Part shown: in pieces, positions 8,627-60,787 of the stretch
Position numbering within the stretch: the first letter of the stretch is position 1
Layout of the letters: the number at the start of each line of letters is the position of its first letter
Assembly (NCBI GenBank): GCA_963675295.2
Contig: CAXXKJ010000002.1
Coordinates: 3,456,001-3,520,000, forward strand
From: a bacterium
Lineage (GTDB): Bacteria > Electryoneota > Electryoneia > Electryoneales > Electryoneaceae
Length of the DNA: 64,000 bases
Direction of reading: 5' to 3'
Notes under the pieces: generated by a model
Databases searched by the model: none
What the model saw: the letters and a program-made list of their open reading frames with translations, nothing else
Told to the model about the DNA's origin: nothing
Position numbers and translations under genes: made by a program

Positions 8627-9388
8627 ATGCCCTTCACCCTCAACATCGACGTCTATTCCGGTCCGATGGACCTGCTGCTGCACGTGGTTCGTCAGAACCG
8701 GATCGACATGCTCGAATTGCCCCTCGCGCAGATCGCAGAGGGGTTTCTCGAGTACGCACGGGAGGATAACGGCCTCGACCTCGATGAAGCGGGTGAAGTG
8801 TTGTACACGGCTTCGCTGTTGATCCGGATGAAAGTCCGGTTCCTGCTGCCCACCGAGGATGCAGCCGACGACGAGGACAGCAACGGCGACATCGAGCGTG
8901 ACGAAGAGCTGGAGGAGATGTTCCTCGGGATCGTCGCGGCGGCCCGTGAACTGGCAGACAGTGAAGCGCGGCAGCGCTTGCATTTTAAACGCGGTCAGGC
9001 GGCGGGCCAGGTCGAGGTGGACGAAACCGAAGCGTTGCTGCAGGATCTGAACGTGTTGCACCTGGCGGAAGCGTTCCGGCAGGTGGAACGCAAGCTGGAG
9101 CAGAAGCCGGCGCGTCAGCTCGCCCTGTTCAAGGTCACCGTCGAGGAACAGGCGGTGATGATTCTGCAAGGCCTGGCGGAACAGAAGAGCATTTCCTTCC
9201 AGCAGATCGCGGAGATGCTGACCGAACGGATCGAGGTCGTGGTCACCTTTCTCGCGATGCTGGATTTGCTGCGTCTGGGTAGAATCAGCTTGCGTCAGGA
9301 CGAACTGTTCGGTGAGATTCTGATTCAGCGCGGGCCAAAGTACAAGGGCACTGTCATTCGGGATGTGGAGGACAACGGGAATGGCTGA
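8627..9388 (+). CDS. scpA: Segregation and condensation protein A
   Basis: YSGPMDLLL at the N-terminus; VVVTFLAMLDL...RQDELFGEI at the C-terminus. Confidence 0.92.
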   Translation: MPFTLNIDVYSGPMDLLLHVVRQNRIDMLELPLAQIAEGFLEYAREDNGLDLDEAGEVLYTASLLIRMKVRFLLPTEDAADDEDSNGDIERDEELEEMFLGIVAAARELADSEARQRLHFKRGQAAGQVEVDETEALLQDLNVLHLAEAFRQVERKLEQKPARQLALFKVTVEEQAVMILQGLAEQKSISFQQIAEMLTERIEVVVTFLAMLDLLRLGRISLRQDELFGEILIQRGPKYKGTVIRDVEDNGNG

Positions 9389-10193
9389 TCAACCGGTAGC
9401 TGATAACGGCGCGGAACGAGACACCGATTGGTTCGTCCCGCAGGTGGAAGCGTTGCTGTTCGCGGCGGAAGAACCGTTGCGTGACGCGGACATCTCCGCC
9501 GTGCTGCCGGGGTTGCTTGAGGCGGGTGTCGGCCAGGTCATGGACGCGTTGGAGCATAAGTACAGGGACGGCGACCACGCGTTAACCGTACAGCGTGTCG
9601 CCGGCGGCTGGCGGCTGGCGACCCATCCCAACTACGCCGACCTCGTCCGCACGCATCTGAAGGGCAAGGTTCGCGGACGGTTGAGCAGGGCATCGCTGGA
9701 AACCGTTTCGATCATCGCCTACAAGCAGCCGGTCAGCCGTGCGGAAATCGAGCAGATGCGCGGCGTTGACAGCGTCCAGACGCTCCGTCACCTGATGGAC
9801 CGTGGCCTGATCAAGGCGTCCGGCCGGGCGGAAGCGCCGGGACGTCCGCTCTTGTACACCACCACCGCCGCATTTCTCACCTACTTCGGCCTGGACTCCC
9901 TCTTCGAGCTGCCCGATCCCGGCGAATTGCTCGCCGAACCGGACGAGGTGTCACAGGGCTCCGAGGTTCAGGTCGCGCGCGGCCCGTTTGCCGGTGGAGA
10001 TACCGGCGTCGAGCAGGAATGGTATCGTCCCCGATCGGACGGAGATGAAGCCGGCGCGCCCAAACAAGATCTTCCCGATGAGCAAGACGATCAACCGGAC
10101 GCCGAATTCATCGAAGCGGACAGCGCGGACGAATCCGCGGCTGCCGAATCCTCGGAATCGGAGTCCTCTGAGAAAGATCTGGGAGACAAGTAA
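9381..10193 (+). CDS. scpB: SMC-Scp complex subunit ScpB with acidic tail
   Basis: VEALLFAA, LSRASLETVSIIAYKQPVSRAEIEQMRGVDS, GRPLLYTTT..FL.YFGL. Confidence 0.95.
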   Translation: MADQPVADNGAERDTDWFVPQVEALLFAAEEPLRDADISAVLPGLLEAGVGQVMDALEHKYRDGDHALTVQRVAGGWRLATHPNYADLVRTHLKGKVRGRLSRASLETVSIIAYKQPVSRAEIEQMRGVDSVQTLRHLMDRGLIKASGRAEAPGRPLLYTTTAAFLTYFGLDSLFELPDPGELLAEPDEVSQGSEVQVARGPFAGGDTGVEQEWYRPRSDGDEAGAPKQDLPDEQDDQPDAEFIEADSADESAAAESSESESSEKDLGDK

Positions 10194-10712
10194 GTCTGAT
10201 CCAGTTCCAGCACCAACGATCCTCCTCCCCATTCCATCCACAGTTTTCATCGTTTTTCTTCTTTTATCAATTCCCATTTTCGATGATGCAACCTGTTCAA
10301 AATGCACCAAATCGTCATCAACTTTCCAAAAGCAATTTCATCTGCTGCCCTGTTTGCACCTTCCCGAAAAATCCAAATTCAGTCCATAAACTGTTGTAAT
10401 GATAATGAGTTAAAAGACGTGAATCCGCAACATCTCCCCTCTCGCTTGTGACTCAACTCACAAAATCTTCTACTGAAAATGTTGACTTTTTATCGTTACG
10501 CGAACAAAACTCATGATGGAGGATCGGACACTGGTTTGTCACGCCTCAGATTCGACCCGAGAACTAGTCCCCGGGTTCTGGCTCAGCACCTGCACTCCTG
10601 CTCCGCTCACCACCGGATCCGCATCCTTTGATCACAATCTCGAAAACAAAAAGCTGTTCATAAAGTGTGCAACGACCGCTTCCGGTGGAAGCACAACTGT
10701 TGGGGGTGATCG

Positions 10713-12158
10713 ATGAGAAAACTGTTCACGTTCTTTATCCTGGTTGGTTTGGTCTTCATGGCGGTTCCGGGCCATGCACTGGAGAAAAAGCCGGACGTGC
10801 TGCACTACGGCATCTCAGTTGGTGGTGCGATCGGGGACAACATTTACAATCGTGAGAACTGGGTGCCGCAGTTCCGTGGGCATCTCGGTCTCGAAGTCGC
10901 CTCCATGGTCTACACCGAGTTCGGCCTGCACTACGCCGGGCTTCGCGGTGACGCCACCCGCCGTGGGTTCAAGGGCTACAAAACGAACACCCTGATCGGC
11001 GACTGGCGGATGGTTTTCTCGCCGTTTGACATGTCACCGGTACAGCCGTTCATCTACGCCGGCTTCGGTGTCAGCAAGGATCTTCAGGTCAGCGACAGCG
11101 ACCTCTTGCCCGTCGTGCCGTTCGGTGCGGGACTGCGGTTTTACATCGCACCGAAACTGGCGATCGACCTCAGCGGAACGTACGACCTGTTTATCTCGGA
11201 CGATCTTGATGGCTACGAGCGTGAGGGCAAGAAAAACCCGATCAGCGGCGGCAAACACGACGCATTTTACGGGTTCATGGTCGGCTTGTCAGTTGTTCCG
11301 GAACGTGTGGACTGGGAAGCGCTCGAGCTCGCGGAGAAGCGGCGCATGGAAGAGGAAGCGCGCCTGGCGGCATTGGCTGCGGATCCGGACGGTGACGGCC
11401 TGACCACCGGCGACGAACAGAACAGCTACAAGACCGATTCGCAGGACCCGGACACCGACGACGACGGACTGCTCGACGGCGCCGAAATCCGTACATACTC
11501 GACGAATCCGTTGAAGGCGGACACCGACAGTGACGGTCTGGACGACGGCACCGAGGTCAACAAGTTCAAGTCGAATCCTTTGCTCACCGACACCGACGCC
11601 GACGGCTTGGCGGACGGTGTCGAGGTCAGCCTCTACAAGACCGATCCGGCGAACAATGATACGGACGGTGACGGTCTGCGTGACGGCGAAGAGATCAGCA
11701 TCTACAAGACCGATCCGACCATGGTCGACACCGACATGGGCGGTCTCAACGATGGAGCTGAGATCGAACGCGGCAAGGACCCGCTGAATCCGGACGATGA
11801 CGGTATAGTGCTGGAAACCGGCAATGAGCTTGTGCTGCACGGCATCAACTTCGAGCTCAACAGCGACAAGCTGACCCCGAATTCGATCACGATTCTGGAA
11901 GGTGTGTACGAGGCGCTGCTCGAGTTCCCGGACGCCGAAGTCATCATCGAGGGTCACTCGGACAGTTCCGGAAACGACGAATACAACCTGGCGCTGTCGC
12001 AGAAACGCGCGAATGCCGTGATGACGTGGCTGGTGCGCAAGGGAATCGACTCCCGCCGTCTCGAAGCGGTTGGTAAGGGTGAAACCGAACCGATCGCGGA
12101 CAACGGCACCGCGGAAGGGCGTGCGCAGAACCGCCGTATCGAGTTCTCGGTGAAGTAA
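10713..12158 (+). CDS. OmpA-family protein: beta-barrel + Ca-binding DxDxDG repeats + peptidoglycan-binding domain
   Basis: Signal peptide; about six DTDGDGLxDGxE..T(D/N)P repeats; [33 protein letters not shown]. Confidence 0.9.
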   Translation: MRKLFTFFILVGLVFMAVPGHALEKKPDVLHYGISVGGAIGDNIYNRENWVPQFRGHLGLEVASMVYTEFGLHYAGLRGDATRRGFKGYKTNTLIGDWRMVFSPFDMSPVQPFIYAGFGVSKDLQVSDSDLLPVVPFGAGLRFYIAPKLAIDLSGTYDLFISDDLDGYEREGKKNPISGGKHDAFYGFMVGLSVVPERVDWEALELAEKRRMEEEARLAALAADPDGDGLTTGDEQNSYKTDSQDPDTDDDGLLDGAEIRTYSTNPLKADTDSDGLDDGTEVNKFKSNPLLTDTDADGLADGVEVSLYKTDPANNDTDGDGLRDGEEISIYKTDPTMVDTDMGGLNDGAEIERGKDPLNPDDDGIVLETGNELVLHGINFELNSDKLTPNSITILEGVYEALLEFPDAEVIIEGHSDSSGNDEYNLALSQKRANAVMTWLVRKGIDSRRLEAVGKGETEPIADNGTAEGRAQNRRIEFSVK

Positions 12159-12213
12159 GCCACGATTCTAAACAGTCGCGTCGCAGGCTGACGCAAGTTG
12201 AAAATTTCCAACT

Positions 12214-12248
12214 CATCCCTGCCGTTTCACGCGGCAGGGATGTTTTTA
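12214..12248 (+). terminator. Intrinsic terminator
   Basis: CATCCCTGCCG / CGGCAGGGATG stem followed by TTTTT. Confidence 0.8.
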
Positions 12249-12394
12249 TATTTGCCAGAGGGGATCAAATTCGATCTGGAACCCCGAATCCGATTTGACT
12301 GGAGATACGAGTAGCGCGCAATTGGTTCATTGCGATACTATTATGCCAACATGGGAAAGAGTTAAGGGTTGAAACACGAACCGAGGGGGTCAGG

Positions 12395-13837
12395 ATGAAG
12401 TCAGGGTCCAAGTTTGTGGTACTGTTGTTGTTGCTCGTGTTCGCCGCGCAGACGTATGCGGAGATGGACACATCGAACCTTCACTACGGTATCGCGGTTG
12501 GTGGAGCAATGGGCGATAACCGTCACAACCGGGAAAACTTGGTGCCCCAGTTCCGGGGTCACCTGGGGATTGATCTGATTCCAAGGCTGTGGGTTGAGTT
12601 TGGCATCCGCTATCATGAAATCGGTGCTGATCCAAACAAGCTTGGGAATTTCGGGTACGAGACGAACAACCTGATGCTTGATTGGCGTGCCGTTTTCACA
12701 CCGTGGCACATGTCTGATTGGCAACCATTTGTTTTCCTGGGGTACGGTGTCATTCAGGACATGGACAACGGTAGCAACGGCGTGATGCCGATGATTCCGA
12801 TGGGTCTGGGGTTGCGTTACTACCTGATGGAAACTCTCACCATCGACGGAACCCTGACCTACGACATCGCGCTGGATGACGACTGGGATGGGTATGAACG
12901 TCGCGGCAAGAAGAATCCGCTCACGGGCAACAAGCACGACTCCGCGTTTGGCTTCCTGCTCGGCTTGACCGTGGTGCCGGAACGTATCGACCATGAAGCC
13001 GTGGCCGCCGCGGAAAAGGCGCGCATGGAAGAGGAAGCCCGTCTCGCCGCGCTGGCGGCAGACCCGGATGGCGATGGCCTCACCACCGGCGACGAGCAGT
13101 CCATGTACAACACCGACCCGAACGTGGCGGACACGGACGGCGACGGCCTGATGGATGGCGCCGAGATTCGCACGCACCAGACCGACCCGACGATGGCCGA
13201 CACCGATGGTGACGGCCTTTCCGACGGTGACGAGGTCAACACCTACATGTCTAATCCGCTGGTTGCCGACAGTGATGGCGACGCCCTCGCGGACGGCGCC
13301 GAGGTGAACACATACGGAACCAACCCGGGCTCGATGGACACGGACGGCGATGGTCTCTCGGACGGTGACGAAGTCAACGTCCACATGACGAACCCGACCA
13401 GCATTGACACTGACCTCGGCGGCATGATTGACGGCATGGAGATCGAGAAGGGCCGCGACCCGTTGAACGGCGAGGACGACGGTATGGTGCTCGAAACCGG
13501 CAAGGAGCTGGTGCTGCACGACATCAATTTCGAGCTCAACAGCGACAAGTTGACGCCGAACTCGATCACCATCCTTGAAGAGGTTTACGCCGCGCTGATG
13601 GACTTCCCGGAAGCGGAAGTGATCATTGAAGGCCACTCGGACAGCTCGGGCAACGACGACTACAACCTGTCGCTGTCGCAGAAGCGCGCCGAAGCGGTCA
13701 AGACCTGGCTGGTCAACCGTGGCATTGACGCGAGCCGGATGGAGGCCGTCGGTATCGGTGAAGCCGATCCGATCGCGGACAACAGCACCGCGGAAGGCCG
13801 TGCCGAGAACCGCCGCATCGAGTTCAAGGTGAAGTAA
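12395..13837 (+). CDS. OmpA-family protein, tandem paralog of 10713-12158
   Basis: Same architecture; near-identical linker and OmpA_C domain. Confidence 0.9.
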
Positions 13838-13870
13838 CTCACGCAACGCAAGTCAGATTGAGTTTCTCAA

Positions 13871-13910
13871 GCCGTCCGGCATCGCATTGATTGCCGGACG
13901 GTTTTTCTTT
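13871..13910 (+). terminator. Intrinsic terminator
   Basis: CCGTCCGGCA / TGCCGGACGG stem followed by TTTTTCTTT. Confidence 0.8.
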
Positions 13911-14196
13911 GCCCATCACAGAGTGGCAGGATTGGTCGCTTTTTGTTGAAACGTCATACAATCTACCCCGCGTACTTGATAGCTGCACGACAGAAACTGG
14001 AGTTTTAAACGATGAATGCTCTTGGCTGAATTCAGCCGGTTTCCTATCCAGAAAAATCGTGAGATATTGCTTTGAATTCAGGTCTCTGGAATCATGCGCA
14101 GGAGCTGTTTATTTGACACGACATCACAGGTCCACATCGCTATCTTGGCGTTCGACCAACAGTCCCGGTTCCGGATAAGCTGCGAGAGGTTGAGGA

Positions 14197-21119: not shown

Positions 21120-22511
21120 ATGTTCAGAACGCTACTAGTTACACTACTAATTACCTCCTTCCAAGTTACATACGCAGTAGATTCATGGTTTGAACACACA
21201 ATAATTGATAATATTTCTGCTGAGGGCTTATACACTTCTGATATTAACTCAGACGGCTTTATTGATATTATTACAGGATCTGATTCACTTATTGTTTGTA
21301 TAAATAACGGTGATAACACATTTAATACACATTATTTTAGCATTAATGAAGGCAATATTTACTTAATCACAAGTTTAGCAACTGCTGATTTAGATTCAGA
21401 CGGCGATTTAGACATTATTGTCGTTTCTGAGTATATAGAAGACACACTTATTTGGATGGAAAACACTGATAATGGATTTCTAAAACATAGTGTTGATAAC
21501 GATATGCAATATTATTATGTAACAGTTTATGATATTGATAACGATTATGACATGGATATTATTACGTTTGGTTCACAGAGTCATATTTGGTTTAATGACA
21601 ATGCAACATTTACTTCGTCATTAGTAGGTAACAATTTGGGTATTGCTTATGATGCCGATATCGATGATTATGACAATGATAGTGATCTAGATATAGTCGT
21701 CTTAACATTTGACAACATCATTATGTTTTCTAATACCGGAAACAATATCTACAATCAAGGTATTATTGATACTGCTGAACCTTTTCAAGGATTCTGGTCC
21801 ATAGAGTCAGGTAGAATTAATGATGATTTGAAGCCAGATATTGTCGTTTCATCTAATAGTGAGATAAAATGGTATGATGTATATCAAGATACAATATACT
21901 CAAATAACATTTATCAACTAAATAACTATGATGACATTAGCTTATCTATTATTGACATGGACTACGATGATGATAGTGATATTATATGCGCGTTTAAACT
22001 GTCAAATAAACTACTATGGTTAGAAAATACCAATGACAATTTATGGAGTACACATCTAATAGGGTTAAATGAGACTACACAAAATATATTTGGTTCATCT
22101 GTTAAAAGCGAACAGTTTGACGTTGATCCAGATGTGGAAGTTGTACTAGCACTTTCATCAAAAATAGTCTGGTATGATTACAATGATTATCCATTGATAA
22201 TTACTCCAATAGTAACAAATATACCACCTGCTGGTGGTTCTATTCTCTATTCTTTGTCTTTAGTTAATCCAACATTGACAGCTCAATTCGGAATAAACTA
22301 TTGGACATCTATTACACTTCCGAACGGTAACACTCTTAGCCCTATAGTGACTGCTACTTTTAATATAGGTCGATATAGAACAATTATTATTGATCAACTA
22401 TATCAAAATGTGCCCAGTTTTGCGCCAAGCGGAACATACGTTCATACTTCAAATGTTGGATACTATCCAGAAAGCCTCTTGAATGCAAGCTTTGAATTCA
22501 CAAAAAACTGA
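21120..22511 (+). CDS. Secreted FG-GAP/VCBS repeat protein with a shared C-terminal Ig-like domain; very AT-rich
   Basis: Repeated DxDxDGDxDI motifs with WxEN; signal peptide; abrupt GC drop relative to flanks. Confidence 0.85.
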   Translation: MFRTLLVTLLITSFQVTYAVDSWFEHTIIDNISAEGLYTSDINSDGFIDIITGSDSLIVCINNGDNTFNTHYFSINEGNIYLITSLATADLDSDGDLDIIVVSEYIEDTLIWMENTDNGFLKHSVDNDMQYYYVTVYDIDNDYDMDIITFGSQSHIWFNDNATFTSSLVGNNLGIAYDADIDDYDNDSDLDIVVLTFDNIIMFSNTGNNIYNQGIIDTAEPFQGFWSIESGRINDDLKPDIVVSSNSEIKWYDVYQDTIYSNNIYQLNNYDDISLSIIDMDYDDDSDIICAFKLSNKLLWLENTNDNLWSTHLIGLNETTQNIFGSSVKSEQFDVDPDVEVVLALSSKIVWYDYNDYPLIITPIVTNIPPAGGSILYSLSLVNPTLTAQFGINYWTSITLPNGNTLSPIVTATFNIGRYRTIIIDQLYQNVPSFAPSGTYVHTSNVGYYPESLLNASFEFTKN

Positions 22512-35664: not shown

Positions 35665-36429
35665 CTACGCCTGGGCCCGTTTCAGTTCAAATGTCTCGCC
35701 GAGGTAGAGTTTCCGGGCCTCGGGGTCGACCGCCAGTTCCTCGCTGGACCCTGACTTGAGGATGCGTCCCTCGTACAGCAGGTAGGCGCGGTCGGTGATT
35801 GCCAGAGTTTCGTGCACGTTGTGGTCGGTGATCAGCACTCCGATCCCGCGTTTGACCAGGTTGCGCACGATGTCCTGAATGTCCGCGACGGCGATCGGGT
35901 CGATCCCGGCGAACGGTTCATCCAGCAGGATGAATTTGGGATCGGTAACGAGGCAGCGGGCGATTTCGGTACGCCGCCGTTCTCCGCCGGACAGGTTGAA
36001 CGCCTTGCTCTTGCGGATGTGCGTGATCGACAGTTCTTCCAGCAGGCGTTCGACAATCTCGCGGCGTTCCGACCGGCTGGCGGGCATGGTCTGTGCGATC
36101 GCCATCAGGTTGTCCTCGACGCTCAGTTTGCGGAAGACGCTGGCCTCCTGCGCGAGATAGCCGATGCCCATGCGTGCCCGCTGGAACATCTTCATCCGCG
36201 TGATATCCTTGTCGTCGAAGAGGATGCGGCCCTCGTTGGGCTGGATCATACCGACGGTCATGTAGAAGGATGTGGTCTTGCCGGCGCCGTTCGGGCCGAG
36301 CAGTCCGACGATCTCCTCCTGCTGAACCTCGATGGTGACATTATTGACCACCGTCCGGCGTCCGTACCGCTTGACGAGGTTCTCCGCCCGCAGACGGCTT
36401 CGTGTTGTACCCTGTTTATGGTCGTTCAT
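35665..36429 (-). CDS. lptB: LPS export ABC transporter ATP-binding protein
   Basis: [46 protein letters not shown]. Confidence 0.97.
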
Positions 36430-37693
36430 TGCGCAGCTTTCCAGCGAGGTGTGGCGGGTAGAAGGTGCCTTCGGTGCCACCCAGGACACGCACGCTCTGC
36501 AAGTTGTTCTCTTCGATGTTCAGTTCGACGTGATCGCCGCTGACCTCGTTCGATCCCTGGTCGACGCCGTCCTGGAAAACGTGGTAGATGCCGACCGCCT
36601 GGCCGTAGCTGGCCATCTGGCTGATCTCGCCTTCGGTGAAGGTGAGCACGATCCGCTTGCCACGCAAGGAAGACCGCGGGGCGGTCTCGATGCTGTCGGA
36701 CGGTGTGTAGGCGACGGCGTTGCCCTTGACGACGGCGGAATCCAGTGTACCCTCGCGCATGTACATCCAGATCGAGTCGCCGAGGACTTCGTCCCGAATG
36801 TGCAGGATGCGCGGTTCTCCGACCAGCAACGCGAGATTGGAATCGGGGTAGAAGAACAGCTCGTCCCCCCACCCCTCGACGTCATGCCAGGTGATCTTGA
36901 CGTTGTCCCGGGCCAGCGCGAGGCCGTTCAGAGCGTCGTATTCCATGTATTCACCGACCACACGCGCCTCTTCCTGTTCGAGACTGTCGATCTGGATCAG
37001 GATTGGATTGGCCGGGATACGGGCGAACTGGCGCTCGGTGTCGTAGGTGCCGTTGTCGCCGGTGATGACGATCTTGCGGCGCAGATCCCGGCCGATGACG
37101 TTACGGTCAAAGGTGGCGACGTCGCTGACTTCGTCGTACTGGGCTTGTTCGCAGTACATGATCACGGAATCACGTTCAAGGATGACGTTTCCGCGCGCGA
37201 TGCTGCGGCGGTTGTTTTCGTAGTAGAAGACTTCGTCCGCCTTGAGGCTGCGTTCCGGGTCGATCATGACCACGTCGCCGTACATCTCAAGCAGGCCCTG
37301 CTGGCGGCGGTGACGTGCCCAGTCGCACCAGGTGGTCATGCTGTCCTGGATGATCTTGACATTGTTCTCGAGCAGGACGACTTCCTCGCCGCGTGCGTCC
37401 TCGATCTGCCGCAGCTCGCCGGCCCGGTCGAGGATGATTGCGCCGCCAGTGTCACGGCCCTGGCCGTGCCAGTCGCCCCGATCGTCCACACGATTCTGTC
37501 CGGAGACGATGGAATCTGACTCCATCTGCTGCCGCAGCTGTGCCTCTTCCGCACGTTTTTTTGCGATTGCCTTCGCCCGGGCCATCATTCCGGGGTCCGC
37601 TTCTTTCGTTTCGGTGCTGTCCTGACCGACCGCCGTGGTGAACAGGATGGCTAACGGCAACACGAGCAGCATGAGCAGACGTGGGATCCTCAT
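36416..37693 (-). CDS. OstA/LptA-like periplasmic LPS transport protein (long, multi-repeat)
   Basis: Signal peptide; repeated beta-jellyroll units (ARGNV, ARDNV, VKGNA); located between lptC and lptB. Confidence 0.8.
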
Positions 37694-47349: not shown

Positions 47350-48048
47350 TCAGCGCATCAGGTTGTATTTGAGGATGCAGTACAGGTGCCGGAACGCGTC
47401 CTTGAAGCGGATTTTCTTCCCCTCCTGGTACGTGCGGCCATAATAGGAGATCGGGACTTCGTACACCCGCCAGCGCGAGGTAACAGTCTTTGCAGTCAAC
47501 TCCGGGTCGATGCCGAAGCCGTTCTCGTACAGTGTGATCGAGTCCAGCACCTCGCGGCGGAAGGCTTTGTAGCAGACGTTGATGTCGGTCAGGTTGACGT
47601 TCGTCAGCAAATTGCTGAGGAAGGTCAGCGCCTTGTTCGCGAGGTAATGCCAGTAATAGAGAACGCGGTGCGCGCCGATGGAGAGGAAGCGGCTGCCGTA
47701 GACAACGTCCGCGATGTCATCCTGGATAAGGTGGACGAGCCGTGGGATCTCGGCGGGATCGTACTCGAGGTCGGCGTCCTGGATGACGACGACATCGCCG
47801 GTGGCGTATTTGAAGCCAGTGCGCAAGGCGCCGCCCTTGCCCCGGTTCTGCGCGTGACGGATGAATTTGACCCGCTCATGCGCGGTTTCCAGCTCCCGTC
47901 CGATCCGTGGGCTGTCGTCACGCGAATGATCGTCCACCAGGATCACTTCCAGCTCGTCGAACCCGTAATCCACCGCAAGCACTCGGCGGACCAGTTCGCT
48001 GAGAGTCGCTGCTTCGTTGTAGATGGGAATGACGATGGACAGTTTCAT
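47350..48048 (-). CDS. GT2 polyprenol-phosphate glycosyltransferase (DPM1-like)
   Basis: SIVIPIYNE, VDDHSRD, NRGKGGA, QDADLEYDP, VYGSRF, EVPISY.GR. Confidence 0.92.
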   Translation of the reverse strand: MKLSIVIPIYNEAATLSELVRRVLAVDYGFDELEVILVDDHSRDDSPRIGRELETAHERVKFIRHAQNRGKGGALRTGFKYATGDVVVIQDADLEYDPAEIPRLVHLIQDDIADVVYGSRFLSIGAHRVLYYWHYLANKALTFLSNLLTNVNLTDINVCYKAFRREVLDSITLYENGFGIDPELTAKTVTSRWRVYEVPISYYGRTYQEGKKIRFKDAFRHLYCILKYNLMR

Positions 48049-48202
48049 TGCCGCTCCGTGTGCCGCGTGTCTCGTTCGTGTTGAAACTACACGCTGAGAT
48101 GCAGGAGGCAAGAGGGAATTGAGAGACGGGGGGCGAAGAGATTTAAATGGCTCAATGAGATTTGTGAGTCGATTTTCGCATTTCAGAGGTGCAGCAGAGA
48201 TC

Positions 48203-49528
48203 CTACTCTTTTTTTGTCGGATACGGCGATTCACCAACTAGCTCAATGCTGTAGGACCGAACGCCGATCAAACTGCTCAATGCAAGTTCAAGATCGACCA
48301 GCGACCTTCGACTCTCATCAGCGGAATGAATCAACTTAGAAATCCAGACCGTCATTGTCCTTTGACGCTTTAAATTGCCAAATCCCGGTTTGAGTACAAG
48401 GTCAACTATATTAAAATACTGCCGAAGTAAAACACGTGTCACGGCATAGATCTGACCCGGGACATCGATGGTAACAATTTCAAGGATTAGCTCTTCGAAT
48501 TTTCCTTCCGTACTGGACTTCGGAATCAGTTTCCGTACGGTTGTTGTAAGATCCCACTTTCGTTTATAAAGATTTAACATCTTTTTTTCTTCCTTATCCG
48601 GCTTGTACACTTCCATTTTAAAATCTGTCGGCTTATTTGTGTCTACCGAATCCTTACTAAACAACTTTGCCATAAATGCGGCCAGATCTAAATCAGATGG
48701 CGGGTTATATTTTGACTTGAAAGTAACATAGATCGATGCCATAGATGTATATATAGAGGAAGAATGAGATACATGCAAAATATTGATGTTATTTGAAAAG
48801 AAATACATAGATAGATAGTGTATTAGACCAATAAAGTCAGGCCCATTGTAACGAGCCACATGTATATTATTAAATTCAGTATGATCATCGTCAACATATT
48901 CTTTATATTTTTTGAAATCTATATCTATTCTGTCCATAATTTCCCTTCTTTTTCTTATTATCGTTAATTTTATAGCCTTATCTTTACTATAATAGACTAA
49001 CGGTTCTTTTTCATCTGTTGTTGCATCTTTAGCCATCAACCTACCAACCGTTTTAGCGTTTATAGTATTTTCAAATTCTTTTAGAATCCATTCAGGAAGG
49101 AAATCATTAAGGTACGGATGTTTTTTATCCTTATCCTCGAATTTCCACAACGATGAATCCGGAACTTTCCAGTAAATATTGACAACAGGCTCATCATAAG
49201 CACGATCGACATCGGTTTCAGAATAGTTGTATTTTTTGAAGGTTTTGTACTCGTATTGAATAGGTGTTTCGTTCGTATTATTGTACGGGATACTTCTTTC
49301 TCCCTCTGTCAGGTAGTACAGTAGCACGAGGCGATCCGCGTTTTTCAGCAGATTGTCCACCACATCCTTCAGTTTCGTTTTATTCTCATCTCTATCGTCA
49401 ATTTCTCTGGGATCGGCTTCGAAGAACAGGGGACGATACCCATTCATACACAGCATGTGGACTGTATCCTTCCGTTCCTGTAGGAGCTCAGATACTCGTG
49501 AACTAACGAACACACTGATCGGATCCAT
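48203..49528 (-). CDS. AT-rich hypothetical protein: DUF4062-like N-terminus + two ACT-like domains
   Basis: VFVSS...L..ER...G..P..FE...QYEY at the N-terminus; GPDFIGLIHYLS..F..NNINI and DVPGQIYAVT.VL...FNI ACT-like motifs. Confidence 0.65.
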   Translation of the reverse strand: MDPISVFVSSRVSELLQERKDTVHMLCMNGYRPLFFEADPREIDDRDENKTKLKDVVDNLLKNADRLVLLYYLTEGERSIPYNNTNETPIQYEYKTFKKYNYSETDVDRAYDEPVVNIYWKVPDSSLWKFEDKDKKHPYLNDFLPEWILKEFENTINAKTVGRLMAKDATTDEKEPLVYYSKDKAIKLTIIRKRREIMDRIDIDFKKYKEYVDDDHTEFNNIHVARYNGPDFIGLIHYLSMYFFSNNINILHVSHSSSIYTSMASIYVTFKSKYNPPSDLDLAAFMAKLFSKDSVDTNKPTDFKMEVYKPDKEEKKMLNLYKRKWDLTTTVRKLIPKSSTEGKFEELILEIVTIDVPGQIYAVTRVLLRQYFNIVDLVLKPGFGNLKRQRTMTVWISKLIHSADESRRSLVDLELALSSLIGVRSYSIELVGESPYPTKKE

Positions 49529-49611
49529 CGTTATACTCCCTGATGAAAGACTGATAACATATCTCTAATGAATAATCAACACAAAGTAAATAGAAGGTTT
49601 AAAAGAAAATA

Positions 49612-50145
49612 AACTACCCCGCAGCAAGCTACGGGGTATCGACTACTCACAGCTCAAGTCGACTTTGATGTAGCGGCTGGTAGTTAGCTTCTGTACCTTG
49701 GTTCATAACGTATTTTCTGATTGTATTTTCGTCACCGTGCGGACCTACGGTGGATATATAATAACCTTTTGTCCAAAATTCCCCACCCCAGAGCTGCTTT
49801 TTAACTTTGGGTTGTCGGATAAACATCTCTCGTGCTGTTATGCTCTTTATAGTTCGTACTAATTTTGTAGCACTCATGGTTGGCACGGATTGCACTAAGA
49901 AATGCACATGATCTCTATCTATTCCAATTTCTATAAATTCTATTTCATAACGTTTTTGGATTTCAAAGCAGATATCCTTTAATGTTAAATCTATCTCAGG
50001 TTCATCAAATACAACACGACGGTATTTCGCTACACATACAAGATGGTATAGCAATATCGATACGTTGTGTTGTTTTCGGATCAGCTCAGACATTCCACAA
50101 GAAACCAACTGCAGCTGGCCGAAGCAAGCTTCGGGGCATCAACCG
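49612..50145 (-). mobile_element. IS200-like insertion sequence (tnpA only) with subterminal hairpins; ends approximate
   Basis: Hairpins TACCCCGCAGC-AA-GCTACGGGGTA (49615-49638) and CCGAAGC-AA-GCTTCGG (50119-50134) flanking tnpA. Confidence 0.8.
49647..50093 (-). CDS. tnpA: IS200/IS605 family Y1 HUH transposase
   Basis: YHLVCVAKYRR, DHVHFL (HUH), KSITAR, LWGGEFWTKGYY.STVG, I.KYV.NQ. Confidence 0.95.
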   Translation of the reverse strand: MSELIRKQHNVSILLYHLVCVAKYRRVVFDEPEIDLTLKDICFEIQKRYEIEFIEIGIDRDHVHFLVQSVPTMSATKLVRTIKSITAREMFIRQPKVKKQLWGGEFWTKGYYISTVGPHGDENTIRKYVMNQGTEANYQPLHQSRLEL

Positions 50146-50392
50146 CACTGGAGTGAAATTCATATGCGCTTTCACAAATACCAGATGATGTTAGTCTATA
50201 AATAACAGATGTCTAGCACATAGTTTAGACTCTCCTAATAATATTGGCATGCAGTGAATGGCCATTCACAAGATAATTGGACCTGCAGCGAATATGGTTT
50301 TCTGAGGATCATAAATAGAAGTATATCCCCACAAGTCATGTAAAATATTCGGTATGGTCAGCCAATTCCTACCAGTCGAAGCTGCACAGAGT

Positions 50393-50426
50393 ACCGGGGA
50401 CACTTAACGGAGTAAGTGTCCCCGGT
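50393..50426. repeat. Palindrome ACCGGGGACACTT...AAGTGTCCCCGGT (second copy at 20188-20221)
   Basis: 14-bp perfect stems at both sites sharing the same 13-bp arm. Confidence 0.75.
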
Positions 50427-58763: not shown

Positions 58764-59723
58764 TTAAAATTCGATGTATTGAAACAATTTTTGTTCAGAT
58801 TCTGGTAGCCGAGATATCAGTTTAACGTAATAACGCCGATTTATCGGCTTTATAAACGAAAGATACCCATATATTTTCATCCTCATCATTTTTTTGTCAT
58901 CAGTATCATTTTCTAACTTATTGTAGTGATATATCATTGATCGTATTGTACGGTATTTTCTCCTACCAACACTAACTTTATCATCATGTACTATTAAACC
59001 AGTTACTAATTTTCTCATTCCCGGCCCCATGATCCTTGTTTTCTCACTGTTTATTTTAAATTCTTCATCATTTACTATTTTTCCTACACCAATTCTTGCT
59101 TTACAAATCAGTTTTATATTATTTCCAGATATTGACATATCATCCGCGTATCTGCTATACGAAAGGCCTCTGGTTTTACAGTATCTATCTATTCTCTTAT
59201 CCATTATTTTAACTACTAAATTTGAAATCGCTGGTGATGTGGGAGCACCTTGAGGGAGCACTCCATTTCTTGTACAAAGTTTTGAAAGCATAAATGCAGC
59301 TTTATTACTGTATCCTAAATATCTGAATAGTAAGAATACGCGTTTTAAAGTAATACTGGGAAAAAAATCCTTTATATCAAGACATAATACAAATTTATTT
59401 CCCATATGAGCCTCTGCATTATCTATTATTGAGTATCCATATCTAAACCCTGTTGCATTATCGGGTAAATATATGCCAACTGGATCTAATACTCGTCTTA
59501 ATATCCATTTTTGTATCCCCTTCAACGTTGTTAATGGCGCATCTATGGCTCTATTTCCTCCGTTCTTTTTTTCAATATTAAAATGTATATAATATCTTGA
59601 TGAATCTTTAATAATATTAAATAATAAATATTTTGAAACACGTAATAAATAACTTAGCTCTTCCAAGGAATCGAAATCTGGAAGTTCCTCTACCTGGGCA
59701 ATATGTTCTGCAATCGGATCCAT
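58764..59723 (-). CDS. Retron reverse transcriptase
   Basis: KKNGGNRAIDAP, NAEAH (retron region X NAxxH), DIKDFFPSI, LPQGAPTSP, YSRYADD, VTG (region Y); 319 aa. Confidence 0.93.
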   Translation of the reverse strand: MDPIAEHIAQVEELPDFDSLEELSYLLRVSKYLLFNIIKDSSRYYIHFNIEKKNGGNRAIDAPLTTLKGIQKWILRRVLDPVGIYLPDNATGFRYGYSIIDNAEAHMGNKFVLCLDIKDFFPSITLKRVFLLFRYLGYSNKAAFMLSKLCTRNGVLPQGAPTSPAISNLVVKIMDKRIDRYCKTRGLSYSRYADDMSISGNNIKLICKARIGVGKIVNDEEFKINSEKTRIMGPGMRKLVTGLIVHDDKVSVGRRKYRTIRSMIYHYNKLENDTDDKKMMRMKIYGYLSFIKPINRRYYVKLISRLPESEQKLFQYIEF

Positions 59724-59738
59724 GACTGTTTAAAAAAG

Positions 59739-59892
59739 GGATCGGAGTGAACTTTCCTAACTCTGAGAAATCCGTCAACTAAGCGACAGCCGAGCGAAGG
59801 CTGTCGCTTAGTTGAACGAGAGATGCTACATAACCTCATGGACGGCGCAACACCATCCGTAGTGTTCTAAGGAAGTGTAAACACTCCGATCC
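59739..59892 (-). ncRNA. Retron msr-msd non-coding RNA
   Basis: 11-bp perfect a1/a2 inverted repeat (59739-59749 / 59882-59892); CCTTAG with candidate branching G at 59867; msr stem-loop near 59840-59858; 17-bp perfect msd stem 59775-59791 / 59799-59815. Confidence 0.85.
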
Positions 59893-59899
59893 GCAGCCC

Positions 59900-60787
59900 T
59901 CAATAAGCATCTAGAATGTAGTTGCTTCGAATTAAATCAAAAGATGTAGAATGTTGTATTGTCTTTTTAACCAATCCTGACACAAAAGCATACCCTTGAC
60001 TTGTAATTTCATAATTATACCCCTGTACTTTTAAATACAAATCATTTATTAAAATATTTAACGATATAGGGATATTTTCATCTGCAACTTTTTGTGAATC
60101 AGGTATATTATGCAAATCAAGTAAGTATTTATACGCATCTATCAATATAGGTTCCGGAAACATATCAACAAATGAAGAGAAAAACAAGACAAAAAACTTT
60201 ATCTCAAGAGGATTTGATATAAAATCTTCTAATGATGTCTTCTTATCTCCAACAATTTTCCTTACTGCACTATGAATGTTTTTTATGATCTGCTTGCTGT
60301 ATTCATCGCTTAATATATTATCAAGATCATAGTATATAATTATGGAATCAGTATGTTTATCAAGATATCTAACGGGACCTTGCATTATAAAACTATTAGC
60401 ATTTTTGTATTGTTCATCAACTAAAACTATTAATTTATCTTTAAGTTTTTCATGATTTGTGAAGGATCCTAGCTCTGTAAAAGATCCAGGACTCTCTGGT
60501 ATGATTAAAACTGACTCCACACTTGACGCTAGTGTATTTTCTAATTCTAGTAGATTATATTTTTTACCTCTATATAGTAGATCTGTAAAAATATGTTCAG
60601 GATAATACACTTCTACATCAAAACCATATGCCTTTATTTCTAAAAGCCTATTTTTTATAATTTTTCTGATTGATTCTTGTTCATTAATGCTTTTACCAAC
60701 AATAAATAATTTTATCCTTTTTTCTATTAGGCTAGGATATATAAGGTCTAATGTATCCCTTGCTATATTTCGAGTCGTCGAATTCAT
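59900..60787 (-). CDS. Retron type II-A-like effector (NDT-like domain + putative C-terminal winged helix)
   Basis: YPEH.F..L, NLLELEN.LA, IIPESPGSFTELGSF, SFI.QGP; C-terminal Y.IT..G motif. Confidence 0.85.
   Translation of the reverse strand: MNSTTRNIARDTLDLIYPSLIEKRIKLFIVGKSINEQESIRKIIKNRLLEIKAYGFDVEVYYPEHIFTDLLYRGKKYNLLELENTLASSVESVLIIPESPGSFTELGSFTNHEKLKDKLIVLVDEQYKNANSFIMQGPVRYLDKHTDSIIIYYDLDNILSDEYSKQIIKNIHSAVRKIVGDKKTSLEDFISNPLEIKFFVLFFSSFVDMFPEPILIDAYKYLLDLHNIPDSQKVADENIPISLNILINDLYLKVQGYNYEITSQGYAFVSGLVKKTIQHSTSFDLIRSNYILDAY

Follow-up and report, generated by a model that had tools for sequence, protein, structure and literature searches.

The window, a stretch of 64,000 nucleotides (positions 3,456,001 to 3,520,000 of contig CAXXKJ010000002.1, assembly GCA_963675295.2, from a bacterium of the Electryoneota), contains at 48203..49528, on the reverse strand, a gene whose 441-residue product consists of an N-terminal DUF4062/NIR-like head, a linker and two tandem ACT domains. 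We favour, with moderate confidence, the reading that this protein is a one-gene DUF4062 enzyme that degrades nicotinamide adenine dinucleotide (NAD+; an NADase), is gated by its ACT domains and was acquired horizontally as an accessory defence or stress module; the architecture taken by itself is much more certain. The original prediction, made from the DNA letters and their translations, had described a DUF4062-like domain fused to tandem ACT domains, and this arrangement, a head of TIR/NDT-like fold and two ACT domains encoded by a solitary gene, is backed by profile comparisons, fold searches and a conserved protein family.

The open reading frame (ORF) is intact, starts with ATG and retains every residue that is invariant in the family. 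Its G+C content is 0.38, that of positions 48001-50000 is 0.395-0.396, and the genome around it is at about 0.6. A word-based search of 5.8 billion proteins returned a single relative (P0002, 30% identical over the full length, E 4e-39), and a single-sequence search of the PDB with the window protein gave rows at chance level only (FphE at 0.0094, RPN11 at 1.1). An exhaustive HMMER search of 1.84 billion representative proteins recovered 50 proteins with E ≤ 1e-3, 29 of them at E ≤ 1e-10, mostly 350-390 residues long. An alignment of 36 family members, on which the conservation analysis and the AlphaFold2 model are based, shows that 30 of the 36 match DUF4062 (best E 5.5e-11) and 33 match ACT (best E 2e-10), with ACT_4 matched by 16 and ACT_AHAS_ss by 15. 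Outside this alignment there are 15 further matches, five of which carry both domains; the others are fragments or lack a Pfam match, plus one DUF4062-Mrr_cat protein that aligns through its head alone. Since DUF4062 and ACT recur in nearly all members scanned, the protein belongs to a rare, small family with one fixed architecture.

Residues R19, E37, G76, P89, E93, P357 and G358 are invariant in the 36 rows, and K20, P33, D231, G234, N249, E414, G422 and V423 are near-invariant; judged from the alignment, the invariant columns correspond to motifs of the head and to the ACT ligand loop. The full-length AlphaFold2 model has a mean pLDDT (predicted local distance difference test score) of 78.1 and a pTM (predicted template modelling score) of 0.82, and resolves the head and both ACT units.

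The head occupies residues 1-212 (48893..49528, reverse strand), and is assigned by Pfam, structure searches and profile-profile alignment to a TIR/NDT-like, flavodoxin-type domain of the DUF4062/NIR kind. The resemblance to DUF4062, noted originally from a few N-terminal motif residues, is borderline for the window protein alone and firm for the family: apart from the 30 matching relatives, hhalign aligns the family head with three bona fide DUF4062 proteins (PF13271 E 3e-24, 5.6e-20 and 9.1e-24) at 95.2% probability and E 2.7e-8 over 101 columns. Those ordinary DUF4062 proteins, which have other C-terminal parts, come from three genomes that belong to the same phylum as the window, and a MAFFT alignment shows that F7, S9, S10, E18, R19, E37, D65 and G76 are common to them and the head. 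The family profile also matches the DUF4062 chain of KpSwz (10wc_A) at E 1.2e-4, a match that falls to E 0.093 for an N-terminal profile built from five sequences. Ankyrin-repeat matches of this five-sequence profile, which arise through the motif 'GHTPLYIE', were rejected as spurious. In the ESM Atlas the best score was 0.76, to DUF4062 clusters, and serves as a lead only.

In the full-length model strands and helices alternate over residues 5-206, and VIA-align places residues 1-212 close to two groups of structures: the nucleoside deoxyribosyltransferase (NDT) type, with RCL (2khz, Z 11.7), NDT (7o62, Z 11.3; 6evs, Z 10.9) and MilB (4ohr, Z 11.0), and TIR domains, with RPS4 (4c6t, Z 10.9), SARM1 (9hq0, Z 10.2), ThsB (6lhy, Z 9.3), TIR-STING (7un8, Z 9.2; 9lmq, Z 8.7) and TIR-SAVED (7qqk, Z 8.4), where differences in Z below 1 are to be read as ties. 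The TIR/NDT-like fold that had been expected of the N-terminus is thus borne out by Z scores of 9.2-11.7 to NDT, RCL, MilB and TIR domains. Compared with most of its relatives in the 36-row alignment, the window protein has about 75 additional residues in the head, a lineage-specific insertion placed between strands D and E.

The candidate catalytic residue of the head is E93 (codon 49250..49252, reverse strand), in the motif T-P-I-Q-Y-E-Y, and is the glutamate of QYEY that the original prediction had singled out; conservation, the model and the Pfam coordinates all point to it. It is kept in 36 of 36 sequences and in 16 of 16 of a second set, with position 91 free to vary. In the model E93 falls within the first turn of the helix at 89-101, which follows strand C (66-71), and is followed directly by Y94. 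By the Pfam coordinates it corresponds to profile position 78, the position of the glutamate in the E-[YF] motif of the three bona fide DUF4062 proteins. On these grounds E93 is a well-motivated but putative counterpart of the DUF4062 catalytic glutamate.

The C-terminal half consists of two ACT domains. The first (residues 222-308, 48605..48865, reverse strand; Pfam ACT at 230-269) carries the loop G229-P-D231-x-x-G234 and, in the model, comprises strand 222-230, helix 235-245, strands 248-258 and 263-272, helix 279-293 and strand 304-308, whilst the second (residues 343-433, 48230..48502, reverse strand; pLDDT 88-96) carries the loop D355-x-P357-G358-Q and comprises strand 343-354, helix 359-369, strands 373-381 and 389-400, helix 403-418 and strand 423-433, so that both units have the β-α-β-β-α-β order. 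VIA-align matches residues 220-436 to the isoleucine-bound regulatory domain of Escherichia coli threonine deaminase IlvA (9d2s, Z 13.1 over 160 residues) and to the ACT pair of aspartate kinase (3l76, Z 12.6). A Foldseek search with the whole model is led by IlvA, 2nyi, aspartate kinase, SerB and GcvR (1u8s), with the AHAS small subunit lower, and a search with the family profile finds the ACT domains of the AHAS small subunit at E 6.9e-8 and of homoserine dehydrogenase at E 5.7e-5, as well as the tandem-ACT protein 2nyi at E 1.3e-4. The two ACT motifs proposed earlier, weak in the window protein by itself, are therefore supported by 33 of 36 relatives, by two complete units in the model and by the folds of IlvA and aspartate kinase; their likeness to GcvR and PurU holds through the Foldseek match to GcvR and, weakly, through the family-profile matches to the PurU entries 3w7b and 3nrb.

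ACT domains are textbook allosteric sensors of amino acids, an ACT pair normally reads primary metabolites, and ACT domains often mediate oligomerisation. The ligands named in the titles of the structural neighbours are Ile, Val, Lys, Thr, Ser or Gly. As in IlvA, aspartate kinase, the AHAS small subunit, SerB and GcvR, the two ACT domains stand side by side in one chain and have a D-x-P-G-type loop. Known tandem-ACT modules of this kind serve in the control of biosynthetic enzymes or as a transcription factor, whereas the output here is a TIR-like hydrolase encoded by a sporadic, mobile gene.

These ligand loops bear on a different explanation, in which the ACT pair serves for dimerisation or as a scaffold only, or the whole protein is a catalytically silent adaptor, without any gating, and the gene in this genome may be a silenced remnant. 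The frequent role of ACT domains in oligomerisation is in keeping with such a scaffold, and no ligand can be named; a prediction of the homodimer (two copies, 36-row alignment) gave scores of 0.01 and 0.11, where the mark is 0.42, and weighs neither way. The β1-α1 ligand-loop residues are, however, the best conserved of the C-terminal half, with P357 and G358 invariant and D231 and G234 nearly so. The ORF is also intact and keeps all family-invariant residues, and the head shares F7, S9-S10, E18-R19, E37, D65 and G76 with bona fide DUF4062 proteins. We consider this explanation unlikely.

The analysis establishes the architecture, the two folds, the conserved residues, the foreign origin and the sporadic occurrence of the gene; what the favoured reading says of substrate, ligand control, the sense in which the switch works and biological function is inference. 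The gene product would be a self-contained sensor-effector enzyme, whose head acts as an N-glycohydrolase of the DUF4062/NIR kind, with E93 as the catalytic residue and NAD+ as the most likely substrate, and whose ACT domains form an intramolecular pair in the style of the threonine deaminase regulatory domain. A small metabolite would bind to the conserved glycine-containing β1-α1 loops of the pair, and its binding or release would shift the arrangement of the head or the oligomeric state, turning the hydrolase on or off. The protein would then most likely serve as an accessory conflict or stress module, in which a metabolic signal sets off NAD+ depletion and, by this route, abortive infection or growth arrest.

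The choice of NAD+ as substrate draws on recent work on the DUF4062 family. In the main text of one preprint, DUF4062 is described as a TIR-like NADase family, about 20% of whose bacterial members are in defence islands; KpSwz (Swarozyc) needs E97 and an auxiliary (AUX) domain and is activated by the phage portal, and the DUF4062 domain of TEP1 is an NADase that needs the conserved glutamate (Osinski et al., 10.64898/2026.05.01.722283). A second one renames the domain NIR and reports NAD+ depletion by PsAvs2 (E108), Vulcan (E98) and VstA (E103), with a C-terminal domain of VstA that is suggested to bind a small molecule released in infection (Le Mouellic et al., 10.64898/2026.09.04.749371). 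The third describes Evangelion, a set of single-gene DUF4062 systems whose AUX region varies and whose motifs are F11, E87-Y88 and Q/W/E; among them Eva01, with its conserved E87-Y88, hydrolyses or depletes NAD+ (Ibarra-Chavez et al., 10.64898/2026.06.25.731849). The idea that the DUF4062 domain is the effector of a conflict system was put forward before these results were taken into account, and is strengthened by them, since the main texts of all three 2026 preprints report DUF4062 as an NADase effector by experiment (10.64898/2026.05.01.722283, 10.64898/2026.09.04.749371, 10.64898/2026.06.25.731849). Single-gene DUF4062 systems with a C-terminal sensor are likewise established in the main text of one of them, in support of the favoured reading (10.64898/2026.09.04.749371).

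The gene is foreign and was acquired horizontally, as an AT-rich islet of one gene. It lies in an AT-rich insertion of 2.26 kb (48134..50392), delimited by comparison with a sister genome. Besides the gene, the insertion comprises an IS200 copy and 235 bp of upstream DNA that is likewise AT-rich; it is bordered on one side by a gene for a GT2 glycosyltransferase and on the other by one for a haem-oxygenase-like/TENA protein. In the sister genome (G001), where the flanking DNA is 91% identical, both flanks are about 39 bp apart and the site is empty. Four read sets, all from one study of the same organism and none listed as RNA, cover the stretch; the left junction is bridged by a 21,425-base contig from the independent read set X1, and read sets X1 and X4 agree with the assembly without any variant. 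No terminal repeats of the 2.26-kb insertion were found. Scans of the window with Rfam and for tRNAs gave no match, so there is neither a tRNA integration site nor a retron msr call in it.

At the right edge of the insertion, a perfect hairpin with a 14-nt stem (ACCGGGGACACTTA / TAAGTGTCCCCGGT) is present at 50393-50426. About 34 similar copies are scattered in the genome, and three other genomes from the genus hold many more, which makes it a REP-like repeat family; it is present in the sister genome too, at the empty site.

The IS200 copy (49607..50157, reverse strand) encodes tnpA at 49647-50108, with a Y1_Tnp match at E 4.1e-36, and the AT-rich 441-residue gene beside an IS200 element was thus found exactly where the earlier reading had placed it. 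The copy is inserted 78 bp upstream of the start codon, between the gene and the 235 bp of AT-rich DNA. Seven other copies in the genome, 100% identical, are confined to 49607-50157, as are copies of 96% identity in the sister genome, and the end hairpins of the element (49619-49643 and 50119-50143) flank tnpA alone. The possibility that the gene is an IS200/IS605 passenger was rejected, since all other copies match just the IS stretch. The seven identical copies, together with the 96% copies in the sister species, indicate that IS200 has been recently active, and we propose that it landed after the arrival of the gene, in its upstream region.

The distribution of the gene is sporadic. Within the window's phylum it is present in 1 of 79 genomes, the window's own; in the Acidobacteriota it was found in 2 of 401 genomes (the query genome included), and in the family of genome G062 in 2 of 201, both known beforehand. 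The named records that carry it are metagenome-assembled genomes of Acidobacteriota (Thermoanaerobaculia, Pyrinomonadaceae). Its genomic context was compared over 15 distinct loci (the window, L006-L009, L018-L024, L025/L026, which encode the same protein, L027 and L034), and the G+C content of the gene is lower than that of the left flank in 15 of 15 and lower than that of the right flank in 11 of 13, being equal in L027 and higher in L023. The sporadic distribution and the low G+C content relative to the flanks form the pattern of a horizontally moving accessory gene, and no partner gene is conserved across the 15 loci; a place in a conserved metabolic operon, which would have spoken against the prediction, was accordingly not what the loci showed.

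Mobile or defence-type neighbours are present in four of the 15 loci. L020 has an rve integrase, a RelA/SpoT-like protein (PDC-S33) and a TIR_2 protein, L027 an IS3-type transposase and GmrSD/HEC-06, L022 AbiU2 and PDC-M19B, and L019 a PDC-S09 nucleotidyltransferase and DUF433; in L007 there are integrases upstream. As to a setting of homologues in defence islands, which the prediction had named as a check, the picture is mixed: 4 of the 14 other loci have credible PADLOC or Abi/restriction neighbours, and the window itself is no dense island. Two further PADLOC hits were discarded, the DpdF hit in L009, which is a RecQ with RQC and HRDC domains, and the PD-T4-6 hit in L007, which is an NHL-repeat protein.

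The cluster around the L020 homologue, at 9137-13962, consists of the rve integrase, the RelA/SpoT-like protein (PDC-S33, E 1.4e-124), a 513-residue TIR_2 protein (PDC-S59) and DUF4258, and is likely a defence islet in a metagenome contig.

Several observations weigh against the favoured reading, beginning with the strength of the domain assignments. Taken by itself, the window protein reaches the Pfam cut-offs barely or not at all: PF13271 matches residues 6-93 (positions 2-78 of the 82 in the profile) at 21.5 bits and E 2.6e-4 by hmmscan, and with 24.8 bits in a six-frame search of the genome, just above the cut-off of 24.7, and PF01842 matches residues 230-269 with E 0.0074 and 16.5 bits, where the cut-off is 27. 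PADLOC has no match for the window protein, and an NCBIfam scan gives just a weak ACT match. Modelled alone, from a 16-row alignment cut at 140 residues, the head is poor (pLDDT 62.8, with residues 156-212 unmodelled), and a Foldseek search with this head-alone model yielded nothing at E ≤ 0.001, its top rows being TIR-STING, the RPS4 TIR domain, ThsB and NDT. MAFFT and hhalign put the register of E93 2-3 residues off, in low-confidence columns, and as this differs from the Pfam coordinates E93 can be equated with the canonical glutamate only provisionally.

The best structural matches of the head, moreover, are RCL, NDT and MilB, which are nucleoside or nucleotide N-glycosidases and score marginally above the TIR domains (Z 9.2-10.9), so that its substrate need not be NAD+. 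It is conceivable, although improbable in our estimate, that the head belongs with the N-glycosidases or transferases of nucleosides or nucleotides (NDT, RCL/DNPH1, MilB or BcmB-like), acts on nucleotides and not on NAD+, and is still controlled by the ACT pair. The PsAvs2 domain was itself first annotated as a CMP hydrolase, according to the main text of the preprint on NIR domains (10.64898/2026.09.04.749371), and the present family is a divergent subfamily, below threshold against Pfam and without the Q/W/E motif of Swarozyc/Evangelion-type sequences: at this position S-Q-W-E in L003 is replaced by K-L-K-D in the window protein and by A-K-x-x-M-D in the family. The motif marks lineages and not all of DUF4062, since two of the three bona fide proteins compared are also without it. 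On the other side, the gaps in Z are below 1 and count as ties, the sequence places the domain in DUF4062, and KpSwz, TEP1, PsAvs2, Vulcan, VstA and Eva01 hydrolyse or deplete NAD+ in the main-text accounts of the three preprints.

The upstream region supplies another difficulty. A hairpin at 49638-49615 is followed by a T-run, and with IS200 and this terminator-like hairpin 78 bp upstream the gene may be silent in this genome. The IS200 insertion, which parts the gene from its 235 bp of upstream DNA, may have cut off the promoter of the DUF4062-ACT gene, as the silenced-remnant form of the scaffold explanation would have it.

The genomic surroundings also speak in part against a defence role. 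The gene is surrounded by housekeeping genes in the window, and none of 21 pattern matches in viral contigs encodes a relative. The context loci were recovered with patterns from eight closer sequences of one clade and are biased to the 'GHTPLYIE' clade; they thus come from one part of the tree, and the window protein forms a long branch in another. In 4 of the 15 loci (L009, L021, L025/L026 and L024) the gene adjoins one for alanine dehydrogenase, one for an aminotransferase or both. Alanine dehydrogenase is directly adjoining in three, in two gene orders, upstream in L009 (6132-7247) and downstream in L021 (1667-2782) and L026 (1544-2656), and a class I/II aminotransferase lies directly upstream in L025/L026 (L025 202-1380) and L024 (2-295). 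The remaining loci, outside the defence, integrase and amino-acid groups, have uninformative contexts.

These neighbours would fit a metabolic regulator or enzyme with no immune function, in which the ACT domains sense an amino acid such as alanine and the head, in concert with alanine dehydrogenase and aminotransferases, tunes the turnover of NAD(P)+ or nucleotides. The proteins at the alanine dehydrogenase and aminotransferase loci are only 43-63% identical to one another and fall into at least two well-supported clades, ACT domains are the classic amino-acid sensors, and the structural matches are to IlvA, aspartate kinase, SerB, GcvR and AHAS. The gene is, however, much too sporadic for core metabolism, being confined to 2 of 201, 2 of 401 and 1 of 79 genomes in the sets given above. 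At the alanine dehydrogenase and aminotransferase loci its G+C content is 10-19 points under that of the flanks, as expected of an insertion (0.35 versus 0.47/0.50 in L009, 0.41 versus 0.60 in L025 and 0.40 versus 0.56 in L024). Sister proteins occur in unrelated contexts (L008 versus L009), no amino-acid gene is among the neighbours adjoining the window gene, and the alanine dehydrogenase-linked and defence-linked loci are interleaved in the tree. We give a purely metabolic role little credence. The recurrent alanine dehydrogenase neighbour may hint at the ligand or reflect a favoured insertion site.

The kinship of the protein is with ligand-gated TIR-like NADases and with single-gene DUF4062 systems, and it does not form a new category. 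SARM1, TIR-STING, TIR-SAVED and ThsA are ligand-gated NADases of TIR type or SIR2 that are inactive until the fused sensor binds its ligand. The window head matches the TIR parts of SARM1, TIR-STING and TIR-SAVED (Z 10.2, 9.2/8.7 and 8.4, respectively). The sensors of the four known systems are ARM, STING, SAVED or SLOG domains that read nicotinamide mononucleotide (NMN)/NAD+ or signalling nucleotides, whereas an ACT pair takes this place here.

With Swarozyc and Evangelion, as they are presented in the main text of the preprints, the window protein shares the single gene, the N-terminal TIR-like DUF4062 head, the conserved glutamate, a C-terminal region that controls activity or, here, would control it, and a horizontal spread that is often on mobile DNA. 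The C-terminal region differs: in KpSwz it is a helical stalk/AUX that senses the phage portal and in Eva01 a short AUX tied to phage replication, in contrast to the two ACT domains of the window protein, whose head also lacks the Q/W/E motif and has the insertion of about 75 residues. The closest published idea is Vesta, whose VstA is likewise a small NIR protein, with a C-terminal domain for which binding of a small molecule has been proposed. Vesta comprises two genes in one operon, the other one encoding the alkaline phosphatase VstB, whereas the window gene is solitary; the Pfam hits of its neighbours, like those at the 14 other loci, include no phosphatase family. The sensor domain of VstA is not described as ACT in the main text.

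ACT domains are absent from the main text of the three 2026 DUF4062 preprints, whose supplements or figures may show such an architecture. A literature search found, among the papers listed, no description of an ACT sensor in an NADase or an anti-phage defence system, nor of a DUF4062-ACT protein; single mentions of 'ACT domain' elsewhere, for a capsid-sensing immune system, toxin-antitoxin-chaperone systems and the toxSAS FaRel2, do not describe such a sensor. The ACT-fused form of DUF4062 appears to be undescribed in the searchable literature, in agreement with the original prediction, which had not recognised the architecture as a described system.

DUF4062/NIR was recognised as an NAD+-degrading effector of bacterial immunity and of human TEP1 only in 2026, and the sensors in the main text of these publications recognise proteins (STAND/TPR, HEAT, portal-binding AUX), apart from one uncharacterised domain that possibly binds a ligand. 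A fusion to ACT would widen the inputs of DUF4062 to ordinary metabolites and, if confirmed, would offer a simple model for the metabolite gating of TIR-like NADases, a question that is central to SARM1 biology too. It is a tentative and rather doubtful proposal that this is the first immune-type NAD+-destroying effector wired directly to a sensor of primary metabolites, with the ACT pair reading an amino-acid-type pool, possibly one tied to alanine or pyruvate in view of the recurring alanine dehydrogenase and aminotransferase genes next to it. If so, the NADase would fire when phage takeover or starvation shifts this pool, and the signal of infection would be the cell's own metabolic state, not a phage protein or a signalling nucleotide. 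Should the protein be a metabolic regulator instead, it would provide the first non-immune role of a bacterial DUF4062 domain.

The housekeeping genes around the insertion encode, on one flank, the GT2 glycosyltransferase, a PMT_2-type glycosyltransferase, a thioredoxin and an EamA transporter, and on the other flank the haem-oxygenase-like/TENA protein and histidyl-tRNA synthetase. Within about 12 kb of the gene, defence systems are limited to a mad3/mad8-like hit (35665-36489) and a type II-A retron pair 9-10 genes off. The retron pair forms a second AT-rich islet (58764-60787, reverse strand, G+C 0.30-0.35), which consists of the retron reverse transcriptase (58764-59723; PADLOC RT_II-A E 3.9e-104, Pfam RVT_1 E 5.7e-24) and a nucleoside-deoxyribosyltransferase-like effector (59900-60787; NDT_II-A E 2.2e-60); its msr/msd RNA was not found by Rfam at the gathering threshold. 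A third AT-rich islet (21120-22511, forward strand, G+C 0.32) encodes a 463-residue protein with FG-GAP-like repeats (PF13517 E 2.3e-15), which has no PADLOC hit.

Another DUF4062 architecture is present in the same phylum, in genome G037 (L005, 1495-2997), where a DUF4062 head (E 5.6e-20) is joined to HATPase_c_4 and Fic-like_C, and the gene directly follows an ORF resembling a type I restriction S subunit.

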